Positions 30,987 to 58,159 of a stretch of DNA of 64,000 nt are shown one piece after another (within the stretch, counting starts at the first letter, position 1; each line of letters starts with the position of its first letter). The position numbers and the translations under genes were made by a program. Below the pieces are notes generated by a model that was not told where the DNA came from, did not search any database, and saw only the letters and a list, made by a program, of their open reading frames with translations. This DNA is from a virus, in IMG/VR virus record IMGVR_UViG_3300045141_000130, positions 1 through 64,000 of that record. One strand, written 5' to 3'.

Positions 30987-33900
30987 TCAGGCTCCGACGT
31001 ACTGCACCGAGATGTATGCCGTGCCCGTGCTGGCGGTGGCCTGTCCGGTTTGGTAGAGGAACAAGCTGATCTTGTCGCCCGCGTTCAACGCGACGACCCC
31101 GGAACCGTTGCTGTACCAGGCGTAGGACGCTGCCATGTTGGCGTTGACCACGTAGATCTGGGTGTTGGTGGCACTGTTGACCCCCAGCACCAGCTGCCTG
31201 ATTCCGGCGGCAGAGGTGTTCTGCATGGACGCCTGCAGGGCGATCAGATACTTGCCAGCGACCGGTACGACGATCCGGCCGCTGTTCAGGCCCAGGCCGC
31301 CAGCCTGGAAGACGGCGGTGTTCATCAACTTCTCGGTGAACACCCCGGTGTTGATGTCGTTCGACCCGGCGGTTGCGCTGTAGTTGCCGTAGGCATTGGC
31401 CCCGTCCATCGACCAGTTGCCCCAGGTCGTCACGAACTGGCGGGTCCAGTGGCGGACACCGCTGCTCGTGGGGACGTAGACGTCCTGGATGTAGAACTGT
31501 CCGCCGTTCAGCGACCGGTGTTCGAGGAGCCCGCTGGAGGCTGCGGCCTCCGGCCCGTTGGCGGGCATGCTGCCGTTGATCCAGTCGTACCAACCGGACA
31601 CGGTGAGCGAGTTGCAGTCGTTCCCCGAGAGCAGCCTGACCGGCGCGAAGGTGGTCGGCACCTGGTTGACCATTGGCACCCAGGGACTGGACGAGGCCGA
31701 CAGCAACGTGCGGAACCAGATGTCCGGAGTCGAACTGGACTGCCGGACCCAGAACTGCCAGCACTGCGTGCCGTTCGAGTTGATCGTCGTGACCGAGGCT
31801 GCGTTGCCGAAGGGGAAGCCACCGTCCGCACCTCCCTGTGCGGTCGAGAGGGTGAAGACCGACACTCCCAGCGGGTACGCGCCACCGAAGGATGCCGACG
31901 GAACCGGCGCTGGCAGGAGGACGACGTTGGCGCCGTTCCCGGAGAACTGCTGCCACGCCGTCCAACCGGAGGTGTTGCCCGAGCGGACGTAGCCAGCCGT
32001 GATCGCACCGGCGGTACCGGCGGCGTAGGTGACCATCTGCGTGGTCGAGGACGAACCGGGGACCCGCCAAGTGGTGACGATGCTGGTCATGCCCTGCGGC
32101 CAGCCACCGGTGGTGGCCTGGGTGTTCGTCAGGGACCAGCAGGAGATGCCGGTCGGATAGGTCGAGTAGTCGTCGGTGGCGTTCTTGTCGCCCGAGAACC
32201 ACACCGTGACACCAGGGTCGATGGCGGTCGCCAACGCCTGGATAGCCGCCGGACCGGCCTGCACCGCGTCCGTACTCAGCGGGTAGGGCAGGCCCTTCGT
32301 CGTCGCACCGCGGACGTCCGCACCCGCAGGCTGCGCACCCCACGAGTTCGAGGTCAGCGCGATCGCCCCCACGCTGGCGGCGGTGAGCGTGGACCACGCG
32401 GTGGCGAAGTCGGTGGCCGAGGTCTTGGTGAGCGCCTGACCGGTGGTGCCGCCTGCGGCCACGCCCGGCCCTGCCGGACCCGTCGTGCCCTGCGGCCCGG
32501 TGGAACCGGTAGGCCCGGTCGGTCCGGTGGCGCCGGTCGTCCCCTGCGCGCCCTGCACGCCCTGCGTGCCCTGCGGTCCGGTCGGCCCCGGCACCGGCCG
32601 GGAGAACGTCATGAAGATCACTTGGGACTCGGGCGGGAAAGAGCCCACCATGCTGTCGACCGGGATCTTCCAGCTGGCGTTCGCCGCCGAGACGGCCACC
32701 CCGGTGACCCGGGCGGTGATCGTGCTGGTTCCCCAGGTGACGGTGACCCAGTCGCCGGACTTCAACGCCTGGATCTGGATGGACCGGTCGATGCCGCCGT
32801 TCTGCTTCCCCACCATCCACAGCTGGGGGGTGGTGATCTGCACCTGGCCGTTCTGGGCGGGACTGGACCCGCTGGTGTAGTTCCAGTAGTCCTGGAGCAT
32901 CAGCGCGTCCGGCGGCCCCTGCGGGCCGGTGGGGCCGGTGGCGCCCGGATTCCCCTGCGTCCCCTGACTTCCCGTGGGGCCCGTGCTGCCCGTCGGACCC
33001 TGGGTGCCGATCGGGCCCTTGAGGTTGCCCGCCAGGGTCCAGGTGCTCGCCCCGGTCTTGACGTAGGTGTCCCCGTTGGCGGTGTTCAGGTAGTGGTCGT
33101 TGACCACGCCCGTACCGGTGCCCGGCACGCCCGAACCCTGGAACCACACCGAACCCGCGGTGCCGGTGGTGCCGGTCGGGCCAGGGTTGCCCTGCGGCCC
33201 CTGGCTTCCCGTCGCGCCACCACTGCCGGTGGCACCGGCGGGACCCTGCGGCCCGACAGGCAGTCGCATGAACGTCACGGCGACGAACGTGCCGGAGCCG
33301 TAGTTCTTCCAGCCGACGATCGACGTCAGGCTGACGGTCCAGACACTGCCCGCCACCGTCGGCTTGACGGACAGGACACCCGACATCACGTCGTTGTTCG
33401 ATCCGGCCACGAACAGGGCCGTGTCGCCGATCGCAAGGCCGTTGAACTGGGCGGTGTGGTCGACGGCGTAGAGGTCGGTGCGGTTGAAGGTCAGGACCGC
33501 ACCAGTGGCGCTCCAGACCACGACACCGGAGACACTCGCGTCGCCCTGCGTGCCCCATGAACCCGTGAGGATGGTGCCACCGGGATTGCCCTGGACTCCC
33601 TGGACCCCCTGGGCCCCGGTGGTGCCCGCAGTGCCCTGCGGCCCCTGGGTGCCCTGCGGGCCCTTGATGCTCCCGCTGTAGGACCAACTACCGCTGTGGT
33701 AGTTGAAGACGTCGCCGCTGGCCGGGTAGATGAACTGGTCGCCCTCGTGCGGACTGGGCACGTTGCCGTAGTCGCCGTACGGGTTGCCGGAGGTGTACCA
33801 CACCGCACCGGGCGTTCCGATTGGACCCTGCGGCCCGGTGAGGTTGCCCTGCTTGGTCCAGGTGCTCGCCGCCGTCTTGGTGTAGGTGTCGCCGTTGGCG

Positions 33901-35318
33901 GTGTTCAGGTACAGGTCGCCCACCACGCCGGTGGCCGGGTTGGGGGCGGAGGTGCCGTAGTACCAGGTCGATCCGCTCGGTCCGGCCGGGCCGGTCGTGC
34001 CGGTGGCACCTGCCGGGCCCTGCGGCCCGGCACCACCCGTCGTGCCGGGCGGGCCCTGGATCCCCTGACTGCCGGTCGGCCCGGTCGGGCCGGTCGGGCC
34101 CGGGTCGCCCTTCGTGCCGGTGCCAGCCGGGCCGATGTCGCCCTGTGGTCCCTGCGAGCCAGCCGGGCCGACAGGCCCGAGCGGTCCCTGGTCGCCGGTC
34201 GGCCCTGCGGCGCCCGTCGCACCGGTGGTGCCTGCCGGGCCGACCGCGCCCGCGTTGCCCTGCGCGCCGGGGGGGCCGATGGCGCCGGTGGCGCCGGTGG
34301 GGCCGGTGCTGCCCTGCGGGCCGGTCGGTCCTGCCGGTCCGGTCGCCCCCGGCGGGCCGACGATGACGCCCGCGTCCACCCACTTGGTGCCGTCCCACAC
34401 CCACAGGTGGCCGGTGTCGACGGTGATGTAGGCGACGCCCGTCGAGGTGGCGTCCAGCCCGGCGGGCAGCGACGCCTGGTTGGGCACCGAACCCTTGATG
34501 TTGACACCGGTGCCGGGCGCACCGGTAGCCCCGGTCGGACCCTGCAGGCCGGTCGGCCCGGCAGGGCCCTGCACACCGGGATCGCCACGAGGGCCCTGGG
34601 TGCCGACACTGCCGGTGGCGCCCTGCGGACCTTGGGCCCCGGTCTGCCCGGTGGTGCCGGGCGGCCCGGCCGGTCCCTGGACGCCCGTCCCGGTGGCGCC
34701 GGTATTGCCCTGCGGCCCCTGGGCTCCGGTGCTACCGGTCGGCCCGGCAGGACCGGTCGCACCCGGAGGCCCGAGTGGGCCGACCGGACCTTGCGAGCCG
34801 GTCGGCCCGGCAGGACCTGTCACGCCCGGAGGGCCGGGCACCGGGGCGACGACCCGCGAGACCTGCATCAGCGTGGCGGGCGCCGGGACCGTGCCCTGCT
34901 GGGTGACGGTGCCGGTGTAACGGCTCATACCCGCGGCACCGGCCGTCACCACCGTCGCCGCGGTGATCACCATGACGAAGCCCTCGCGGACCGGGTCACG
35001 CACCACCAGGTACTCGCCGACCTGGGCGTCGGCGCTCCACATCACGCCGTGGAAGTCGGTGTGGTGCAGATAGACGTCGACGACGGAGTTGAGGGGGGCG
35101 TTGCTCGGCACCACGCCGACCTGGCCCGTCGCGGGCGCCTGATTGTTTGCGACGTAGCCCCACTGGCCGGACTCGACGGTGTTGCCGGGAGGGCCGATGG
35201 GGCCGTTCGGGCCCTGCAGGTTACCGGCCAGTACGGGGTTGTTGGCCGAGTCCAACGGATTGATCGCGTAGCCCAGTGCACTGCGCATCGGGCCGATCAG
35301 TGTGGGCGCCGCCATCAC
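30987..35318 (-). CDS. Collagen-like tail fibre (1443 aa)
   Basis: Long Gly-X-Y runs interrupted by globular modules; C1q-like C-terminus. Confidence 0.85.
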
Positions 35319-36044: not shown

Positions 36045-38087
36045 CTAGCTGGCGACCCGCTGCACCGACAGGCGCCGGTTGCCGAGCGTCGCGTTCGCGG
36101 CGGCGTTGTGGAAGAACCAGACACCTATCGTGTCGCCGATGTTGTAGGGGATCAGCCACGACCCGCAGGCCACCCAGGAACTGGCGTCGCAGAAGTTGCT
36201 GACCCGATAGAAGCCGCTGCCCACGGCCGACAGGGAGCCCAGGCTGACGGTGGCGGTGACGTTGCCCCCGGCGTTGCCGTTCATGGTGAGCACCAGGTCC
36301 ACCCGGTACATCCCGGCCCGGTTGATCTGGAAGCCGTTGCCGCTGGGCACTATGTCGGTGCCGTTGTTGGCCTCATTGGTCGTAGCGATCGGCACCACGA
36401 CGTAGGCACCGGGCGCGATCGACGGCGCGGTGGTGGAGTTGCGGCTGTAGTAGGACGGATCGCCCAGCTGGATCCACGGGGCGTTGCTGGCGGACAGCAT
36501 GTTGCGGTACCACATGTCGGTGGCGGTCGTGTCCTGCCGCGCCCAGATCTGGTAGCCCGCAACGGTACTGCTCTGCCGCCAGGTCACCACCTGGCCCGCG
36601 GTGGAGGTGGCACCGAGCGGCCAGCCGCCATCGGTGGCCGACTGGGCTGCGGTCAGCGCGAACATCGACATGCCGACCGGATAGGCGCTGATGGACGCCG
36701 CGCTGGCGAGCACAGCCTGGTTCGGGATGACGAACTGACCGTCCGTGGTGGACCACACCATCGCGTAGTCCGTGCCGGAGGACTTGATCAGCGGCCTGCC
36801 CACCGAGCCGCCTGCGGGGACCCCCTGGGTGGCCAACGCCGCAGCCGGGGTGAGGTCGCCGGGCGCCAAGGTGTGCCAGACCGAGTCGTAGCCAGCGGCC
36901 GAGTTCTTCATCAGGAACTGACCGGCGCTGCCCGCGGGATAGGTGGGCGGTCCCGGCAGGCCCTGGCCGGACGGTGTGGCGCCGACGTCGACCGGGCCCA
37001 GGATCTTCCACAGCGTGTCGAAGTCGGCCGAGGTGTTCTTGATCAGCGAGGCGGCCGGTACGCCGCCCGTCTTCACCCCCGGCCCGGCCGGGCCGACCGA
37101 GCCGGTGGGGCCGGTGGGACCTGCCGCACCGGTGGAGCCGACAGGGCCCTGGTTGCCCTGCGCGCCCTTGATGTTGCCCTGCAGGCTCCAGGTGCTGGAC
37201 CCGGTCTTGAGGTACAGGTCGCCGTTGGTGTTGTTGACGTACACGTCGCCGGTGGCACCCAGCGTCCCGGCCGGAACGCCGGTGCCGAACAGCCAGCGCG
37301 AGCCGGGCGTGCCCGGTGCCCCGGTGAGCCCGGCCGGGCCCTGGCCGCCGGGCGCACCCAGCATCGAGCCCTGGCCCACCCAGGTGGTGCCCGACTTGGC
37401 GTAGACGTTGCCGGTGTCGTTGGCCATGTAGGCATCGCCACTGGTGCCCAGGCCTGTGGCCGGTGCGCCGGTGCCGAACCACCACACGGAGCCGGGCACA
37501 CCGGGCGCCCCTGATGCACCCGGCGGCCCGGCCGTTCCAGGTGGGCCCTGCGGTCCCGGCACACCTGGCGACCCGTCCTGCCCGTCCTGCCCGTCGACGC
37601 CGGAAGGGCCGGGTGGACCTGTGGGACCGGTGGGCCCTGTGGGCTTGGCACCCTCGACCATGAACACGCCGGTGACCGGATCGAAGGTGATGGTGAACGG
37701 CCCGCCGGTGTTGACCACGTCCTGCTGTGCGGTGTCCAGCAGGACCGCAGCGATGAGCGGCGAGGTGGCCGGGTCGCCGGTCTGCTTGTAGACCAGCGCC
37801 CAGTAGCAGGTCAGCGTCGCGCCGCCGGGCACCGTCCAGGACGCCGGGCCGGACAGCCATGCCGTGAAGCCGGGCGGGTTGGTGACGGTCCGGTTGGGCA
37901 ACGCAACGCCGCCCGCGGTGTAGCCCGCGCCGTCGGCGATCTCGACCGCACCCAGGTCGGCGAAGAACTCGTCGGTGTGGTCCAGGGCGTAGCCGTGGGT
38001 GAGCAACGCGCAGCGCACGTCGTCGTTGACCCAGTCGACGTCGGCGTCCAGGTGGAATACCGCACGGTCGTAGACGTAGGTCTGCAT
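36045..38087 (-). CDS. Collagen-like tail fibre (680 aa)
   Basis: Gly-X-Y runs; GYTAGG N-terminal domain; modules shared with 30987..35318. Confidence 0.85.
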
Positions 38088-50438: not shown

Positions 50439-50583
50439 AGAGATATGCGTTGCGGCGTGCCCAAAAACAGGGCCGCCGGGGCCCACGGAGCAGATCTCCG
50501 TGGGCCCTTCCCATATCGGGGCGCACACCCACAAGCCGTCCGGCTCACCCCGGGCGGCTTTCGTGTCTGGAGAGGACACTGCA

Positions 50584-51207
50584 ATGTTCAAGTTCCACCG
50601 CAGCAACGGCAAGCACGTCGCCGCCGAGCACACCTGCCCGCTGGCCGTCACCCTCCCCACCGTCGGCCGCCACGTCGACGCCCGGACCACCGCGAAGTTC
50701 ATCGTGGCCGGTGCCAAGGTGCAGGCCGAGGCGATCATCGCCGAGGGCAAGGCGCAGGCCGAGTCGGTCCTCAAGGCCGACGCGGAGTTGCGCGTCAAGC
50801 TGGCCCAGATGACCGCTGACGCCAAGGCCGAGGCTGACGCCAAGGCCAAGGCGCAGCGCGACGCCCAGAGGGCGGCGGACAACGCCATCGCCGACTGGCG
50901 CTACGAGGCAGCCCGCGCCGACCGCCGCGAGCGCAAGCACCAGGTGCGTCTTGCCAAGGCGCAGAACGCCACCGCGGCGATGAGGGCCGCTGCCGACGAG
51001 AAGATCGCGGCGTTCAACGCCCAGGCCGCGAGCGCGGCAGCCGCGAACGACACGATCGACCTGGCCTTCCAGGCGAGCGAGATCCAGATGCTTGCCGAGC
51101 AGGTTGCGAAGCTCGCTGGTGACCTGGCTGCCAAGCAGGTCGAGAAGGACCTCGCCGACCTGGCGATCCAGCACCTGATCGACCGGACGGTCCCTGCGGC
51201 CGCCTGA
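50584..51207 (+). CDS. Ala/Lys-rich coiled-coil early protein
   Basis: GAGAGGA RBS before MFKFHRS. Confidence 0.7.
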   Translation: MFKFHRSNGKHVAAEHTCPLAVTLPTVGRHVDARTTAKFIVAGAKVQAEAIIAEGKAQAESVLKADAELRVKLAQMTADAKAEADAKAKAQRDAQRAADNAIADWRYEAARADRRERKHQVRLAKAQNATAAMRAAADEKIAAFNAQAASAAAANDTIDLAFQASEIQMLAEQVAKLAGDLAAKQVEKDLADLAIQHLIDRTVPAAA

Positions 51208-51347
51208 GACTTGGCGTGGCACGGCACGGCTGGGCTTGGCCTGGCGTGGCGTGGCCGGGCAAGCCATGGCTTGGCAAGGCATGGTTTGGCTGGGTCCGGC
51301 CTGGCAAGGCACGGCGCGGCAAGGTAAGGGTCCCTCGCAAGGGGGAC
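51208..51347 (+). ncRNA. GGY-NN pentamer tract 1 (about 24 units) with 3' GCAA-loop hairpin; candidate guide RNA
   Basis: tt GGC gt GGC ac GGC ac GGC tg ... GGT aa GGG then GTCCCTC-GCAA-GGGGGAC. Confidence 0.75.
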
Positions 51348-51472
51348 AAGTAGTACCCGCAATACAGCAGCCCCCCAGCATCCGTGCTGGGGGGCTGCTG
51401 GCGTTTTTCGGCGTATTACCCCCAGGCCAACCGGTCTGGGGTCCCTGCGTTTCTCCTGAGAGGAGAAAGCAG

Positions 51473-51841
51473 TTGAGCGACACCAGTGGTATCCAGCCCT
51501 TCTTCCAAGGCCTGGGGTCCTACCTCGGCGACTACGTCCGCCAGGCGACCGAAGCGTCCTCCTTCCACGTCGGTGACGGGGTGCGCTACCACGGCTCGAA
51601 GGTGGCCGACCACGGCTACTGGAGAGTCCAGGCCGTCCCCGGCAATGGGACGGTCGAGATCGGGCGGCGCGGGGAGCGCCGGTACCTGGTCGTTCGGCCG
51701 CAGTCGATCGACAACCTCCGCGACGAGGTCTGCCGACACTGCGACGCTGCCGAGGTCTGGCACTACGCGATGCGCGTCGACGACATCGTCGACGGGGATC
51801 TGCCGGTGCAGGACCTCTGCTACTCCTGCGAAAACAGGTAG
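51473..51841 (+). CDS. Hypothetical protein with SH3-like region and CxxC pairs
   Basis: AGGAG RBS, TTG start. Confidence 0.6.
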   Translation: MSDTSGIQPFFQGLGSYLGDYVRQATEASSFHVGDGVRYHGSKVADHGYWRVQAVPGNGTVEIGRRGERRYLVVRPQSIDNLRDEVCRHCDAAEVWHYAMRVDDIVDGDLPVQDLCYSCENR

Positions 51842-51857
51842 CAAACAGCAGCAACGC

Positions 51858-51910
51858 TTCAAGCCCCCCGGCCGCTCGGCCGGGGGGTTCCTGCGTGTCT
51901 GGAAAGGACA
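51858..51910 (+). repeat. 53-bp intergenic direct repeat, copy 1 (hairpin plus RBS)
   Basis: Near-identical to 52385-52437, differing only in the hairpin loop. Confidence 0.85.
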
Positions 51911-51915
51911 TGGCA

Positions 51916-52374
51916 ATGAGCAACACCAAGAAGCACCGAGGAAGGTTCGCCTTCCTCCTGGCGGGCATCATCACGGCCCTGCTGATCGCGTCGGCGTTCA
52001 GCGTCGGGTGGGTGTCCAACGCGGCGCCCGACCCGGTGCTGAGGCCGCAGCCCGCCGTCACCGTGCTGACCCACACGGTGCCCACCACCGTGCCCACCAC
52101 CGTGGTCCACACCCAGGTGGAGACGCAGACCAAGACGGTGACGCGGGTCAGCGCCTACTGCGCGGCGGCCATCGCGGATGCCGACGGCATCCAGGCCGAG
52201 TGGCTGCAGGTCGCCACCGACATGGGCAACGCCACCTCCGACATGGTCTACGGGGGGGCGAACGCCGCCAGCAACAGCGAGGTCGAGTCGGCCACCGCGC
52301 TGTTGAAGAAGTTGAACGACACCGACATCCCGCAGTACACCGCCGACAAGATCAAGTGCCAGGCGGGCGAGTAG
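51916..52374 (+). CDS. Membrane-anchored or secreted protein
   Basis: N-terminal TM helix, Thr/Val-rich linker, two Cys. Confidence 0.7.
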   Translation: MSNTKKHRGRFAFLLAGIITALLIASAFSVGWVSNAAPDPVLRPQPAVTVLTHTVPTTVPTTVVHTQVETQTKTVTRVSAYCAAAIADADGIQAEWLQVATDMGNATSDMVYGGANAASNSEVESATALLKKLNDTDIPQYTADKIKCQAGE

Positions 52375-52384
52375 CACTCGCAGT

Positions 52385-52437
52385 TTCAAGCCCCCCGGCC
52401 GACCGGCCGGGGGGTTCCTGCGTGTCTGGAAAGGACA
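52385..52437 (+). repeat. 53-bp intergenic direct repeat, copy 2
   Basis: See 51858-51910. Confidence 0.85.
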
Positions 52438-52442
52438 CTGCA

Positions 52443-53018
52443 ATGCCCACAGAAGTTCAGCAGTTGAAGGCCGAGCTTGATGCCCTGCGTCTCCGGGTCA
52501 TCCGGCTTGAAAGCACCACCCGGGGTATGCAGCGCGGCATCACGGCGCTGAAGGCGGTCGACAAGCCCGACCTGTCGGTGGTCGACTCCCCGGACGTCGA
52601 GCACATGGTCAGCCGTCTCGCCGGTGACCTGGCGAAGCGCCTGGGGCTGACCGACATCACCCTCACCCCGGAGCAGCGGGAGGCGGAGGTCCAGTCGCGC
52701 CGCGACATCGAGCTTCGCGGGCTGCGGGTCGTCAACGAGCAGCTGCTCGCCGAGAATGCGAAGCTCCGCGGCGACATCGAGTACCTGCGCAACGAGGCGT
52801 CCAGGCTCCGCGGGCTGAAGCTCACCGCCGAGGACGCCCTGGCCAACGATCAGCATGTGATCGAGGCGCTGCGCAAGGAACTCCGGCAGTTGACGGCCGA
52901 GACGATGCGCAGGGTCAACGCCGACAGGCTCGTCACCGAGGCCCCGGTCCTGACCGACCCGTGGGAGGGTCTGACCGACCGGCAGCCCCGCAGCCACGGC
53001 AAGCCGGTCCGCGGCTGA
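52443..53018 (+). CDS. Coiled-coil hypothetical protein
   Basis: AAAGGA RBS before MPTEVQQ. Confidence 0.7.
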   Translation: MPTEVQQLKAELDALRLRVIRLESTTRGMQRGITALKAVDKPDLSVVDSPDVEHMVSRLAGDLAKRLGLTDITLTPEQREAEVQSRRDIELRGLRVVNEQLLAENAKLRGDIEYLRNEASRLRGLKLTAEDALANDQHVIEALRKELRQLTAETMRRVNADRLVTEAPVLTDPWEGLTDRQPRSHGKPVRG

Positions 53019-53224
53019 TGAACCCCTACGAGCAGGTCAGCTTCCGCCTGGCCGTCGGCGACGTCGTCCACCTGTTCCTGCCCCAGTCGAAGCTGACCGG
53101 GGTGGTGGACAGGATCGAGCTTCGCCTCGGCGGGCTCGACTGGACCCGGATCCACGTACGGGTCGACGCGGACGGCGTCACCCGCGAATACCCCGTCGGG
53201 ATGGTCTTCCCGGCGGGCTGCTAG
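53018..53224 (+). CDS. Hypothetical protein
   Basis: TGATG coupling. Confidence 0.6.
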   Translation: MNPYEQVSFRLAVGDVVHLFLPQSKLTGVVDRIELRLGGLDWTRIHVRVDADGVTREYPVGMVFPAGC

Positions 53225-53282
53225 TCCGCAAAAAGCGGTACAATGGAGGAGTCGCGTTGCGGCGTGCCCACTTTCGGGCCGC
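53225..53282 (+). promoter_or_regulatory. Promoter -10 (TACAAT) plus conserved leader motif
   Basis: TACAAT at 53239-53244 followed by GCGTTGCGGCGTGCCCA...GGGCCGC, as at 50433-50476. Confidence 0.6.
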
Positions 53283-53356
53283 TGCGGCGCGATTTCTCGT
53301 TTCACCCCCCGGCGACCGTCGGGGGTTTCTTCGTTTCTCGGGAAAGGGAAACAGCA

Positions 53357-53473
53357 ATGAACGTCCCAGCGCACCACCTCAGGACCGGCCTGATCGTCGC
53401 CGTGGTCATGGCGATCATCACCGCGATCTGGGCGGCCGTGTTCGGCCTCGGCCTGAAGGAGAAGCAGTCGTGA
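53357..53473 (+). CDS. Small membrane peptide
   Basis: RBS; one hydrophobic helix; a second tiny TM ORF follows at 53470-53550. Confidence 0.55.
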   Translation: MNVPAHHLRTGLIVAVVMAIITAIWAAVFGLGLKEKQS

Positions 53474-53670
53474 TCAGGATCTTGGTCGTCCTCTTCATCA
53501 TCTGGGTCTTCGGCGATAAGGACCGCCCCGCCGAGCGCAACAACGACTGACGCATTCGGCGGGGCCCGGTTTCGACCGGGCCCCTGCCGTGGGTGCCAGT
53601 CACACCCAAACGGCCCCCCAGCACTCCCGCTGGGGGGCTTACTTCGTTCCCACGAAAGGGGAACAGCACC

Positions 53671-54000
53671 ATGAGCAACGCATTCACGCAGTACTGCCAG
53701 GCCCTCGGCAAGGGTCTGGGCCAGGGCACCACGGCGACCTGGCGCCAGACGAACACCCTGGCCGGGTTCGCCCAGGTCGTCCTCACCCCGATGGCCATGC
53801 GCCCCGCGGTGCTGGTGGGCAACCTGGCCACCAACGTGGTGATCCACTCCACCACGGCGTTCAAGGAGACGGCAGCGGTCCGCAAGGCCGCGGCGCCCGT
53901 CGCCGCCCTGCCCCAGGCGGCTGCCGCAGCCGCTGGCGCCCAGGCCCAGCCTGGGGCGATCTTCATCGTCCCGCCGGTCAAGACGGCCAGCGGGTCCTGA
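53671..54000 (+). CDS. Hypothetical protein
   Basis: AAAGGGG RBS before MSNAFTQ. Confidence 0.65.
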   Translation: MSNAFTQYCQALGKGLGQGTTATWRQTNTLAGFAQVVLTPMAMRPAVLVGNLATNVVIHSTTAFKETAAVRKAAAPVAALPQAAAAAAGAQAQPGAIFIVPPVKTASGS

Positions 54001-54066
54001 AGTACCGCCGGGGGGCCGCCTGGCCCCCCGGCACCCTTCGTTCCCACAGAAAGGGGAACTTGCACC

Positions 54067-54396
54067 ATGTCCACTCCATCAACACCCACCACCGGCCCGG
54101 TCACGCTCATCCCGGCCGGGTCCATCGAGTGGGGCGTCATCCAGCAGAACGCCAAGGACGTCGTGGCGTTGCGCGCCGAGGTCGCCCTCCTCAAGGAGGC
54201 CAAGGAGATCCGCGACCGCCGCATCTCCTGGCTGGAGTCCACCCTCGGCGAGAAGATCGCCGAGGTGGTCGCCCTGCGTCGGGAGGCCGCAGTGGCCGGG
54301 CTGTCGCTCGACCGCTACCGCGGGCTGATCGACAGCCTCGCCGCACTCAGCAAGGCGCAGTCCCCGGAGACGGCCGCACCCGCGGCTGCCTCCTGA
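54067..54396 (+). CDS. Coiled-coil hypothetical protein
   Basis: Same leader architecture as the previous gene. Confidence 0.65.
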   Translation: MSTPSTPTTGPVTLIPAGSIEWGVIQQNAKDVVALRAEVALLKEAKEIRDRRISWLESTLGEKIAEVVALRREAAVAGLSLDRYRGLIDSLAALSKAQSPETAAPAAAS

Positions 54397-54464
54397 TCGA
54401 CACCGTGGGGCGGGGAGCGCATCCCCGCCCCACGGCCCCAACCCACCAACTCCAAGGAGGAGTG

Positions 54465-54818
54465 ATGCGCAACCCGTTCCGCAGCAAGGCTGTCGCGTTC
54501 GACCCCGAACCGTGGCGGCCCGGTGAACTGTTCACCGAGTACCGCGCCGTCGTCAGTTCGTTCGACGACGACAAGCAGTTCCCGATCGTCTCGGTGTTGG
54601 CCGCCAACGCCGAGCAGGCCCAGCAGGCGATCACCCACGCGGTGAACGCCAAGGCGCTGGAGATGGGTGTGAGCATGGACTACCTGCAGGTCCAGATGCT
54701 GGCCTCCCCGGAGGTCGTCCGGGTCTGGAACCAGGACATCAACACCCGGTCGTGGGGCGTGTTCGCCACGCCCGCCAACCACGCCGCCATCGAGGCCCCG
54801 AAGAGGAAGGCCTCCTGA
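54465..54818 (+). CDS. Hypothetical protein
   Basis: AAGGAGG RBS. Confidence 0.65.
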   Translation: MRNPFRSKAVAFDPEPWRPGELFTEYRAVVSSFDDDKQFPIVSVLAANAEQAQQAITHAVNAKALEMGVSMDYLQVQMLASPEVVRVWNQDINTRSWGVFATPANHAAIEAPKRKAS

Positions 54819-55273
54819 TGACGACCCCCCGGCGGAAGCTCCCCAAGATCAACCCCGCCATGGCGATCGCCGGGGGGATCGGCATGGGGGGACTTGCCCC
54901 GGTCCGCCCCCGCCGGTCCCTGGGGCGGGTCAAGGACGCGGCGTTCCAGCCCGTGGAGCGCAAGTACGTGGACGTGTCCGACAACCCGCAGTGGCTGGCC
55001 CTGGAACCCCAGCTAGACAGGGCACGCAAGGCCGTGGAGCGCTGGGAGGACAAGGAGGTCGACGCCAACACCGCCATGCGAGAGATCGCGGGCGACCAGG
55101 ATGTCGAAGGCCTCCGGTTCCGCCTGTTCCACAGCCACCCGCAAGGTCCCGTCAACCTGGAACTGCTGGCCGCCCACTTCGGCGTCAGCATCGGGTTCCT
55201 CGACAGGTTCCGGGACCCGCGGCGGCACAGCGTCACCATCCAGCGCATCGTCGGGCGGAGGCGGAAGCGATGA
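54818..55273 (+). CDS. Hypothetical protein
   Basis: TGATG coupling. Confidence 0.6.
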   Translation: MTTPRRKLPKINPAMAIAGGIGMGGLAPVRPRRSLGRVKDAAFQPVERKYVDVSDNPQWLALEPQLDRARKAVERWEDKEVDANTAMREIAGDQDVEGLRFRLFHSHPQGPVNLELLAAHFGVSIGFLDRFRDPRRHSVTIQRIVGRRRKR

Positions 55274-55491
55274 CCGAGCACGTCTACACGGTCACCATCA
55301 CCCACCTCACCCTGGAGGCGAAGGAGGCCGACGCGATGATGACGACGGCCATCGAGGCGCTGGGCGGCATGCTGTACGAGTACTCCGGGGGCCTGGCGGC
55401 GTACGAGGTGACCGGCTTTCGCCACGGCGACGGCGAGGTCATCGGGTACGTCCACGACCCGGACGAGTTGGAAGATGAGGAGGGGACATGA
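55270..55491 (+). CDS. Hypothetical protein
   Basis: ATGA coupling. Confidence 0.6.
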   Translation: MTEHVYTVTITHLTLEAKEADAMMTTAIEALGGMLYEYSGGLAAYEVTGFRHGDGEVIGYVHDPDELEDEEGT

Positions 55492-55826
55492 ACGCCGCCC
55501 CCGCTGCCGATACCGGCGGCCTGTGCTGGGAGCAGCTGCCCAGCGACCAGGCCGCCGCGCTCGTCCTCGTCGACCTGTACCGGGCGCACCTGTCCACCAG
55601 CGAGTCCAGCCGCCGCTACCGCATCGTGGTGGCGGCGTACAACCAGTGGCTGGGCGCCGTCAAGGTGATGGGCTTCGTCTGGCACCGCAGTCCCGACGAC
55701 ATCCGCGATGCGGTCATCGACACCGTGATGGCCGTCGGCCGGGCCTACCACAGCGACGACAAGGCGCAGTGGCAGGACCGGGCGATGTACGGCGTGCTGG
55801 GAAAGCTGCACCTGCACGACGACTGA
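55488..55826 (+). CDS. Hypothetical protein
   Basis: ATGA coupling. Confidence 0.6.
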   Translation: MNAAPAADTGGLCWEQLPSDQAAALVLVDLYRAHLSTSESSRRYRIVVAAYNQWLGAVKVMGFVWHRSPDDIRDAVIDTVMAVGRAYHSDDKAQWQDRAMYGVLGKLHLHDD

Positions 55827-55976
55827 CGCAGTCTCTGGCCCACCCTTCGGGGTGGGCCAGGGGTCTGCGATTTTTTGCGTTTCCGGGGAAAAGATGATCT
55901 TGAACCCTCCGATTGGTGTCGGAGGGTCGATTCATGCTGTCCGGAACCACCGGCAGCACCCGAAAGGAGGGCCGCT

Positions 55977-57332
55977 GTGACAACAGCGAGTCCCGAGCGC
56001 ATCGGAAATGCGCACACCGCAGTAGCGCGAGGTGCCGAGTTCGGCGACATCCTCGCGTTGCTCAACAAGCAGCAGGCCAGGAAGGTCGACATCGTCATTC
56101 CTGGCAGCAAACTGCTCGTCCGGGACGGCATGCTCGTCGTCGCCGACGACGTCGTCGACATGAGCGACGAAGGGGTGACCCGGGTCGGCGGCGAGTATTG
56201 GCCCACCACCTGGTTCGACGCCCACGTCGCCGAACGGTTGGACATTCCTGTTGCCTATCTGCGCCGCCTGCGCAACGGCAGGGAGATCGTCGGCACCAGG
56301 GGTCGCAGCCGCACCCTCGGCCCGCGACTGGACCTGTACGACAGCAACGTCAACGGGTTGTTCCGCGGCAACGACGACGTCCCGCCGGACCTGCGGAACT
56401 TCTACGCCCGGCTGCTCGTCCCCGACGACCAGGACACCAACGGCATCGCCTACGCGCTGATGTCCTCCAAGTACTGGAGGCTGGACAACTACGACGCGAT
56501 CATGGCCACCCTGTCCGGCATCCGCAAGGCCGGGATCGACCCGCTGTCGTTGCACATCTACGGCGACCTGTCGGAGACGAAGCTGTACCTGCACGTCCAC
56601 GCGCCGCAGGTGCTCACCGCCGCACCCGAACTGCTGCGCAACTACCGCAGCCCGTTCGACATCCAGGGCGAGGCAAGCAAACGCCAGGTTCCGGCCTACA
56701 CGCTGGAGCAGAGGGTGGCCATGGGCCGCCAGTGGCGGGAGACCCACCGGCTGGACGAACACATCCAGCCCGGCTCCGAACCGCTCGTCCACTCCGGTTT
56801 CCTGATCACCAACTCGGAGATCGGGCAGGGCCGCTGGTCCATCCAGAAGGAGATCGTCTTCCTGGCGTGCACCAACGGGATGACCTTGACGGCGGGCCGT
56901 TTCGAGCGGCGGCACGTCGGCAGCGACCAGGAGGAGGGCCAGGTCGAATGGTCGGCGGAAACCCGTGACGCCGAGTTGCAGTGGATCGTCTCCTCGACCG
57001 CCGACATCGTGGCCGATGCGCTCAACCCGGAATCCCTGGAGAACACCGTCACCGCCCTGGAGCAGAAGGCGGGGCGCACCGTGGACGACCCGCGACGCAC
57101 CATCGCGGTCGTCGCCCAGAAGCACCTGTTCAACAAGGACGAGGAGGAGGCGATCCTCCGCCACTTCGAGTTGGGTCAGGCCTTCACCAGTGCCGGTGTG
57201 GCGCAGGCCATCTCGTCCGTCGCCCAGATGTACGAGGACCCGGACCGGGCGCACAAGCTGACCGACGCCGCCATCCCCGCGATGGAACTCGTCCACTCCC
57301 TGAGAAGTACCGGGAGTCGGGCATCCCTCTGA
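55977..57332 (+). CDS. DUF932-like phage/plasmid protein
   Basis: AAAGGAGG RBS; ALMSSKY..LDN, GFLITNSEIG.G, LACTNGM and RRHVG motifs. Confidence 0.75.
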   Translation: MTTASPERIGNAHTAVARGAEFGDILALLNKQQARKVDIVIPGSKLLVRDGMLVVADDVVDMSDEGVTRVGGEYWPTTWFDAHVAERLDIPVAYLRRLRNGREIVGTRGRSRTLGPRLDLYDSNVNGLFRGNDDVPPDLRNFYARLLVPDDQDTNGIAYALMSSKYWRLDNYDAIMATLSGIRKAGIDPLSLHIYGDLSETKLYLHVHAPQVLTAAPELLRNYRSPFDIQGEASKRQVPAYTLEQRVAMGRQWRETHRLDEHIQPGSEPLVHSGFLITNSEIGQGRWSIQKEIVFLACTNGMTLTAGRFERRHVGSDQEEGQVEWSAETRDAELQWIVSSTADIVADALNPESLENTVTALEQKAGRTVDDPRRTIAVVAQKHLFNKDEEEAILRHFELGQAFTSAGVAQAISSVAQMYEDPDRAHKLTDAAIPAMELVHSLRSTGSRASL

Positions 57333-57713
57333 GACCTGGCAAGGCCGGGAGAGGCCGGGCGAGGCATGGCTAGCTTTGGCACGCAAGGGCGAGGCTTGGC
57401 TTGGCTAGGCGTGGCAAGGCGTGGCTAGGCGGGGAATGGCAAGGCGAGGTATGGAATGCCGAGGCGGTGCATGGCCGGGCTAGGCCAGGTTCGGCGCGGT
57501 ATGGCTCGGCAAGGCATGGCGAGGCTCGGTTGGGTCGGCCATGGCGAGGCAAGGCTAGGCGAGGCGCGGTGTGGCAAGGCGGGGTTCGGCAAGGTCAGGT
57601 TCGGCGTGCTCCGGTTTGGTATGGCCAGGTCGGGCTAGGCACGGTCGGGTCCGGTTCGGCGGGCCTGGGCATGGTATGGGCTCCCCGTAAGTCCCTCATT
57701 TGGGCCGGGGAGC
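57333..57713 (+). ncRNA. GGY-NN pentamer tract 2 (about 69 units) with 3' CCGTAAGTCC-containing hairpin
   Basis: Continuous 5-nt register from the stop codon to GGTATGGG (57673-57680), then GCTCCCC...GGGGAGC stem. Confidence 0.78.
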
Positions 57714-57748
57714 AAACAACAAATCCCTTGAGAGGAAAGGATTTTCGC

Positions 57749-58159
57749 ATGACAGGAGGACCATCAGACGGGGCGTACGAAGTCCTGAACACGATGCTTC
57801 ACGACATGCTTCACAGCCCGGGGGCGCAGGCCACGTTCAACATGGACACGCCGATGGCGACACTCATCGACACGTTCGATCTGGCCTTGCCGCCGGACTC
57901 CGACGAGAACTTCACCTGCGATCTGTGCGACCAGGTACACCGGGAGGGCCTGGACCGCATCGTCACCGCATTCGAGCCTGGCGAGCCACCCACCGACGGC
58001 AGCCCCGGGTACGTCAAGATGATCGCCGCCGCGGGCAAGAGCCCCACAGATCTGGCCATGGAGAAACTCGACCGACCGAGGGTGATCCTGGTCCTGTACT
58101 CGTGCCGCAACTGCTCGCTGGAGATCCAGCAGGGGATGGACCGCCAGGAAACCTTCTGA
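57749..58159 (+). CDS. Hypothetical Zn-finger protein (two CxxC)
   Basis: GGAAAGGA RBS; CDLC and CRNC; lies between two pentamer tracts. Confidence 0.65.
   Translation: MTGGPSDGAYEVLNTMLHDMLHSPGAQATFNMDTPMATLIDTFDLALPPDSDENFTCDLCDQVHREGLDRIVTAFEPGEPPTDGSPGYVKMIAAAGKSPTDLAMEKLDRPRVILVLYSCRNCSLEIQQGMDRQETF

Follow-up and report, generated by a model that had tools for sequence, protein, structure and literature searches.

With a G+C content of 68%, the window analysed here, i.e. the whole stretch of 64,000 bases, corresponds to positions 1-64,000 of IMG/VR record IMGVR_UViG_3300045141_000130, a virus sequence of 73,357 bp that carries terminal repeats; contigs confirm the presence of this phage in several soil runs, and the runs listed for it are DNA runs. 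The head, tail and replication genes are encoded on the - strand. Two collagen-like tail fibre proteins of 1,443 and 680 aa with many PHROG tail-fibre matches (30987-35318 and 36045-38087, - strand), which account for the period-9 tandem repeats, and a tape-measure-like protein of 2,133 aa near the end of the record (record positions 66611-73012, - strand; L011:10611-17012) were also observed. Within a block of + strand genes, eight arrays of pentamers on the same strand, comprising about 350 units in total, are located between 51.2 and 62.2 kb, and these arrays are interleaved with five unrelated genes over 11 kb. An ORF of 227 aa (61314-61997) has arrays on both sides, and the first array lies 10 kb from this gene. 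No Pfam family was detected above the cutoff for 19 proteins of the + strand block, PHROGs returned unknown-function families only, for two of the proteins, and a neighbouring protein of 451 aa showed no close relative in IMG/VR. The search for sigma-70-like promoters returned none. The first genes after caps 1 and 2 (51473-51841, 122 aa, and 57749-58159, 136 aa) each encode two CxxC pairs; the two proteins showed no detectable similarity to each other and no Pfam family, and might represent zinc-ribbon accessory proteins.

The tract at 51211-51330 (tract 1) reads as 24 in-register pentamers of the form NN-GGC on the + strand, and the string of dinucleotides extracted in the initial annotation agrees with the sequence. 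The single register proposed for all 24 units was upheld, but the last two units (GGTAA GGG) are part of a conserved 3' cap that is common to all eight arrays. When the full 73 kb was scored, 11 segments were detected, all of which are on the + strand and within 51213-62236, and a phase-aware scan delineated further + strand tracts at 57338-57682, 58170-58555, 60416-61102, 61192-61281 and 61997-62241, with no - strand tract beyond 11 loose units. When an 8-unit GGCNN pattern was searched with at most two mismatches in the 73,357-bp record, 94 matches were obtained on the + strand, and none were obtained on the - strand or for a control pattern read backward; this enrichment is far greater than chance would give. 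The tracts range from 14 to 69 unbroken units (Table 1), and the terminator-like hairpins after array 1 and array 8 are strong. Three arrays start at, or only a few bases past, the stop codon of the upstream gene, and the context CTGAGAC is common to these three starts (51203-51210, 57328-57335 and 58155-58162).

Table 1. Arrays, caps and associated features of the locus, in window coordinates.
Feature	Position	Strand	Description
Array 1	51211..51322	+	about 22-23 GGY-NN units; begins 4 bases past the stop codon of ORF 50500-51207
Array 1 deviant unit	51263	+	GCC
Cap 1	51323..51347	+	GGTAAGGG; hairpin 51330-51347; MFE -15.8 kcal/mol, z -2.37
Intrinsic-terminator-like hairpin and T run	51365..51400	+	would end the array 1 transcription unit
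Array 2	57338..57672	+	67 units, single register; begins at the stop codon of ORF 55977-57332
Cap 2	57673..57713	+	GGTATGGG; hairpin 57680-57713
Array 3	58170..58545	+	32 + 43 units; +1-base junction at 58330
Cap 3	58546..58583	+	GGTTTGGG; hairpin 58553-58583
Array 4	60416..60540	+	25 units
Cap 4	60541..60575	+	GGTATGGG; hairpin 60548-60575; z -3.99
Array 5	60598..60752	+	31 units
Cap 5	60753..60786	+	GGTATGGG; hairpin 60760-60786
Array 6	60774..61092	+	segments 60774-60898, 60900-61039 and 61058-61092, separated by phase shifts
Cap 6	61093..61146	+	GGTATGGG; hairpin 61100-61146; z -4.43
Array 7	61192..61261	+	14 units, directly upstream of vipr; size nearest to published vrRNAs
Cap 7	61262..61294	+	GGTATGGG; hairpin 61269-61294
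vipr	61314..61997	+	227 aa; predicted Cas7-like RAMP, homologue of SUSP1 Vipr
Array 8	61997..62231	+	47 units; first base inside the vipr stop codon
Cap 8	62232..62258	+	GGTATGGG; hairpin 62239-62258
Terminator-like hairpin	62432..62465	+	downstream of array 8

The composition of the units was determined for 357 units in 11 in-phase segments. The unit consensus consists of G (.99), G (.89) and C or T (.92), followed by two near-uniform positions, and the entropies of the five positions are 0.06, 0.57, 1.22, 1.94 and 1.98 bits. The initial observation that variation is concentrated in two positions while the register is kept therefore extends from tract 1 to the entire set of arrays. The absence of an internal repeat pattern was likewise borne out, as 3-unit NN words recur 18 times compared with 17.2 +/- 4.0 times in shuffles; no 4-unit NN word recurs among the 357 units. 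One local AA-AT-TT duplication was noted in tract 1. The dinucleotides of tract 1 had also been described as AT-rich, and the hand count of 16 G/C among 48 bases (33%) was reproduced, compared with 68.0% G+C in the window; a script that read the tract shifted by one unit gave 17/48 (35%). Tract 1 is the most AT-rich of the arrays (35% by script), and the G+C content of NN is 45% over all arrays.

All eight arrays close with a GGUAUGG-type motif, GG(T)(A/T)(T/A)GGG; a hairpin comes directly after this motif, and an A-rich stretch after the hairpin. In all eight minimum free energy folds, it is the 8th base of GGUAUGGG that opens the stem of the hairpin; no two stems have the same sequence, and the z-scores of the eight caps folded singly range from -1.2 to -4.4. 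GGTWTGGG was observed behind a tract in only seven records, including this phage, which accounts for 8 of the 15 occurrences; this cap is clade-specific and nearly private to this phage. In the contigs of one soil run, a variant of the cap 5 hairpin (window 60762-60834) carries CGCCAC/GTGGCG compared with CACCAC/GTGGTG, and the pairing is kept. In the relative with the most similar Vipr (L079, 71%), a tRNA-Ser-like gene called by ARAGORN (913-986) overlaps the 3' end of an array (832-931), and in another relative (L027) the T-arm-like sequence GGTTCGACTCC, as in L079, is located after an array without an ARAGORN call; a tRNA-like processing signal may replace the hairpin cap in these two loci.

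Junctions with one additional base between in-phase segments were observed at 58330 and 60899 in the window. This +1-base junction is the commonest type in the family (23 cases), and 4-base gaps are rare (three cases). Such a junction may correspond to the "staggered array" feature mentioned in a published preprint or to a guide boundary. In this phage, runs of 9-14 units with perfect GGY are in excess (13 compared with 7.3 +/- 2.1), a count that was matched in 15 of 2,000 shuffles, and the longest perfect-GGY run does not exceed 13 units. The target-matched guides of relatives, however, contain deviant units, and no peak of 9-14-unit runs is found family-wide, so deviant units are not claimed as guide ends; inside the long arrays, the sequence shows no visible guide boundaries. 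The segments of the family have a median length of 15 units and a maximum of 137, and 84 of 363 segments contain at least 24 units.

The 227-aa protein encoded between the arrays showed no Pfam family above the cutoff and matched a PHROG of unknown function only; 4,854 homologues were detected at E <= 1e-3 in a large protein collection. A profile of 34 family members matched one solved chain, PDB 36pp_D "SUSP1 Vipr protein", with an E-value of 5.7e-12, and the C-terminal block GVGD(F/W)RPxFGRFSV is common to the family and SUSP1 Vipr. According to the accessible part of the structure preprint, residues H17, R138, D177, W178 and R179 of SUSP1 Vipr read the G1 and G2 bases of the repeat (10.64898/2026.04.26.720927). 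In a HMMER alignment, these residues correspond to H52, R168, D209, F210 and R211 of the window protein (W178 being replaced with F210). Across 34 relatives, each of these positions is either invariant or conserved to at least 90%; taken alone, the alignment of the H17 stretch to the H52 region is weak. The AF2 model of the protein (pLDDT 79, pTM 0.72) showed the best Foldseek matches to Csm3/Cas7 chains of type III and type VII CRISPR complexes (E 5e-5), and in a VIA structure comparison all 50 matches listed, the highest with a Z of 9.7, were CRISPR RAMP complexes. The window protein is thus predicted from this model to fold as a Cas7-type RAMP.

VIPR has been described as a small phage-borne RAMP (Vipr) accompanied by vrRNAs in which 9-16 YNNGG repeats precede a conserved 3' tail; under a "1-nt skip rule", the NN of these repeats pair with dsDNA, the skipped base usually being a wobble base. 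Rival phages, prophages and satellites serve as natural targets, and seven types of VIPR are distinguished (10.64898/2026.04.26.720920). The model systems are type II and derive from a prophage of Pseudomonas fulva and from Escherichia phage SUSP1 (10.64898/2026.04.26.720920, 10.64898/2026.04.26.720927). The accessible text of the structure preprint describes one Vipr protomer per repeat (10.64898/2026.04.26.720927), "staggered" vrRNA arrays are described in outline in the legend of fig. S18 (10.64898/2026.04.26.720920), and solo (orphan) vrRNAs and decoys appear in the accessible part of a further preprint (10.64898/2026.10.15.759431). A fourth preprint, as far as its accessible text goes, reports 5-nt-period VIPR arrays recovered by a language model.

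[quoted passage not shown] However, other features differ. The arrays here consist of 14-69 unbroken units compared with 9-16 repeats in published vrRNAs, the cap is formed by GGUAUGG and a simple hairpin whereas SUSP1 has a pseudoknot tail, the arrays extend over 11 kb among five unrelated genes with one array 10 kb from vipr, and no recognisable vap gene is present, vap being typical of VIPR and not universal. When 18 neighbouring proteins were compared with 146 related loci, none recurred beside vipr except for one weak match in one locus, and accordingly no accessory vap gene was identified. Long stretches of repeats without tails between guides, and the position of tract 1 away from vipr, resemble the staggered and solo vrRNAs as outlined in the accessible parts of those sources.

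The comparison with Class 1 CRISPR-Cas systems (Cas7/Csm3) also reveals both similarities and differences. The predicted RAMP fold (Z as high as 9.7 in the comparison with Csm3 and type VII Cas7), the use of one protomer per fixed RNA step and the periodic unpaired guide bases are shared, but no repeat-spacer array, other cas genes or adaptation module is observed here. The CRISPR backbone advances in steps of 6 nt with 5 read bases, whereas the VIPR step is 5 nt with 2 read bases. No CRISPR repeat-spacer array was detected in tandem-repeat or Rfam scans, Rfam searches of the arrays and caps returned nothing except for one chance-level hit to CRISPR-DR9 on the other strand (23 bits compared with a gathering threshold of 45), and no Cas family was found among the neighbouring proteins in Pfam or PHROGs.

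The association of the protein with the repeats was examined in 146 loci encoding homologues, comprising 17 from IMG/VR, 49 from genome assemblies and 80 from metagenomes (the best 80 of 512 relatives). GGY-NN tracts were observed beside the homologue gene in 133 of 147 records, with this phage counted, and 363 of 370 tract segments in these records are on the strand of the homologue gene. Among the 147 records, this phage shows the largest guide load, with 352 units by an automatic caller, the other records being cut to 20 kb. The assemblies with a homologue are metagenome-assembled genomes (MAGs) of Planctomycetota (many of which are Phycisphaerales), Actinomycetota, Pseudomonadota, Acidobacteriota, Cyanobacteria and others, a spread that does not single out a host for the phage. 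The portal protein of the phage is closest to those of Arthrobacter phages (46% identity).

The initial annotation had suggested that the dinucleotides encode a target, contiguous or gapped, and that this might be examined by searching with different gaps against shuffled strings. In the family, the test set comprised 7,169 units from 147 records, searched with tracts masked against 1.55 Mb on both strands at skips of 0-3; guides with shuffled unit order (10 shuffles) served as the null, and distinct 10-unit guide windows matching at least 19 of 20 bases (at most one mismatch) in another record were counted. At a skip of 1, 11 windows were obtained compared with 0-2 in shuffles, whereas skip 0 gave one window (shuffles 0-2) and skip 2 gave none (shuffles 0-1). 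Skip 3 gave 10 windows (shuffles 0-2). In a smaller earlier run, six of seven skip-3 matches were degenerate arrays matching other arrays that had escaped masking, and from those matches the skip-3 windows are read as an artefact of incomplete masking. The best skip-1 pairs, all from relatives, matched at 20/20, 23/24, 23/24 and 22/24 bases over stretches of 10-12 units. The guide with the 20/20 match fits five alleles of one target gene that differ at skipped positions only, and coordinate arithmetic placed the skipped bases at codon position 3 of an SF2 helicase gene. In Phycisphaerales prophages, this helicase gene (Pfam ResIII/DEAD/Helicase_C) closely follows vipr and a RusA gene. One target within the helicase gene yields the Walker-A-like sequence V-I-P-T-G-G-G-K-T-P-V when translated in the NNx frame. 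At the level of sequence, the published 1-nt skip rule is independently confirmed, with shuffle controls, in a Vipr clade distant from the model systems.

For the guides of the window itself, no gap model exceeded shuffles in the collections searched. In the genome of the phage and 17 loci, 10-unit windows at skips of 0-3 reached a maximum of 17/20, equal to that of shuffles, and no excess over shuffles was seen at the same skips when windows of 12, 16 and 24 units were searched in the genome and all 146 loci (1.6 Mb). Exact 1-skip patterns of tract 1 (units 1-10 and 11-22) and of two 10-unit cores of array 2 each gave zero matches in IMG/VR. Two 8-unit seeds of tract 1 gave 17 and 6 matches, beyond which 6-14 of 34 bases agreed, as expected by chance; one of these matches reached nine exact units, as chance predicts among six matches. 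The guides showed no match with up to three mismatches in five genomes behind related loci. In 401 genomes of the phylum of one of the genomes behind related loci, at the same threshold, one guide gave no match and the other gave one match compared with two control matches. In total, 6 of about 30 possible guide windows were searched against public collections. These blank results for the phage's own guides represent weak evidence because few guides were searched and the IMG/VR scans were limited to exact matches.

The reading of codon positions 1 and 2 with position 3 skipped explains in part why the dinucleotides are less G+C-rich than the genome. In phage genes, the G+C content is.65,.50 and.89 at codon positions 1, 2 and 3, respectively, such that about 57% would be expected in NN from the reading of positions 1 and 2; the observed 45% is lower. 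The rarest NN base is C, above all at the first N (.14). A similar shift was observed in the family, where the G+C content of NN is below that of the locus in 126 of 132 related loci (medians.47 and.63). NN usage correlates weakly with the usage of codon positions 1 and 2 in the phage (r 0.25 in the sense and 0.07 in the antisense orientation). The residual AT shift could possibly reflect targets of lower G+C content, or selection against C, a base capable of pairing with the GG in the repeats.

Based on the protein homology, the fold and the anatomy of the arrays, we assign the locus to VIPR, and the tract at 51211-51330 is very probably a guide-RNA (vrRNA) array belonging to a VIPR system carried by the phage. 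The earlier suggestion of a gapped target code of the NN-x type, in which wobble positions are skipped, matches the published mechanism of VIPR; the basis for this agreement is the membership of the locus in VIPR together with the skip-1 test in the family. The interpretive principle is already in print in the preprints of 2026. By analogy with the model systems, the arrays would be transcribed together with the upstream genes, and each pentamer would be bound by one Vipr protomer, with two neighbouring protomers flipping out and holding G-G-Y. The exposed NN would pair with one strand of a dsDNA target, with one target base, usually a codon wobble base, skipped between dinucleotides (NNxNNx...), and the bound filament would then block the transcription of a rival phage, prophage or satellite. 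Tract 1, with about 22 NN, would provide roughly two guides' worth from within the 3' UTR of an unrelated gene, and the cap might serve as a handle for Vipr, a processing site or a stabiliser.

Several other explanations for the tracts should be weighed against the guide-array interpretation. The periods of 5, 10, 15, 20 and 25 reported by Tandem Repeats Finder, the long ORFs that traverse the arrays and a GenBank mycobacteriophage record that annotates a hypothetical protein over a like tract might suggest a decaying pentanucleotide microsatellite or a repeat-rich coding region. However, decay is expected at all five positions, and the entropies show variation to be concentrated at two; slippage would homogenise the units, whereas NN words recur at chance level; and a reading frame cannot be held by a 5-base period, the open frames being expected by construction as stops in GGYNN mostly need NN = TA or T at Y. 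Microsatellite decay or a coding repeat fails to account for the tracts, and the probability of such an origin is negligible. A structural or regulatory repeat is also very improbable, whether it consists of GG runs prone to form G-quadruplexes or is bound by a ring protein that recognises RNA, in the way that TRAP binds triplet repeats. This explanation fits the occurrence of GG every 5 bases on one strand only and the position of the arrays in presumably transcribed 3' regions ahead of terminators, but leaves unaccounted for the strict linkage, seen in 133 of 147 records, to the gene of a Vipr homologue, the conserved GG-reading residues and the skip-1 matches in the family.

The arrays might instead act as decoys or sponges that bind Vipr and load or divert filaments, either those of the phage or those of a rival, while the NN drift. 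No target was found for about 350 units, the NN are near-uniform and shifted toward AT, and the lengths of the arrays far exceed those of published guides, all of which would be consistent with such a role; the accessible part of one preprint also describes satellite vrRNAs that redirect VIPR to decoy sites (10.64898/2026.10.15.759431). Nevertheless, the arrays of relatives have near-perfect skip-1 targets in coding genes, the target databases were small or limited to exact matches, making the blank result weak evidence, and non-repetitive NN are as expected of unique guides. We therefore consider a decoy function unlikely. Returning to the guide-array interpretation, a more specific proposal is possible but rather doubtful, namely that the locus represents a new VIPR architecture in which very long unbroken arrays (up to 69 units here and 137 in a relative), each with a single GGUAUGG-hairpin cap and placed in the 3' ends of ordinary genes, are read as one long filament or cut by a tail-less rule. 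The +1-base junctions and the excess of 9-13-unit perfect GGY runs could serve as guide punctuation.

Similar tracts were also observed in cultured phages. In a blastn search, 27 GenBank records of cluster F mycobacteriophages matched array 2, and Mycobacterium phages Brocalys (L010:2487-3469) and Donkeykong (L009:2450-3549) carry a like GGC-NN tract upstream of a 248-aa hypothetical protein. This protein is a distant homologue of the window Vipr (hhalign 94.9%, E 4e-8) and has the same GVGDWRP...GRY end; compared directly with the SUSP1 Vipr chain, it gave a weak match (E 0.29). Judging from sequence, the tract and the 248-aa protein of cluster F look like a VIPR locus, and the phages concerned form a tractable system with their host. 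Among the papers listed in a literature search, none dealt with this locus to judge by title or abstract, and the main text of the first VIPR preprint mentions no mycobacteriophages, actinobacteria or Streptomyces, although its supplementary tables may (10.64898/2026.04.26.720920). In Donkeykong, gene 48 ("hypothetical protein", L009:2450-2836) is annotated across the repeat tract, and this ORF is probably spurious because GGYNN strings seldom form stop codons.

VIPR was first described in 2026, and experiments have hitherto been performed on elements of E. coli and Pseudomonas. In the present study, the same module of protein and repeats was found in a GC-rich soil phage, with forms of arrays and caps unlike those of the model systems. 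For genome annotation, the results suggest that ORFs called across GGY-NN tracts are probably spurious. Moreover, the cluster F loci would open VIPR to work in Mycobacterium smegmatis, where thousands of sequenced phages would be available as candidate targets.
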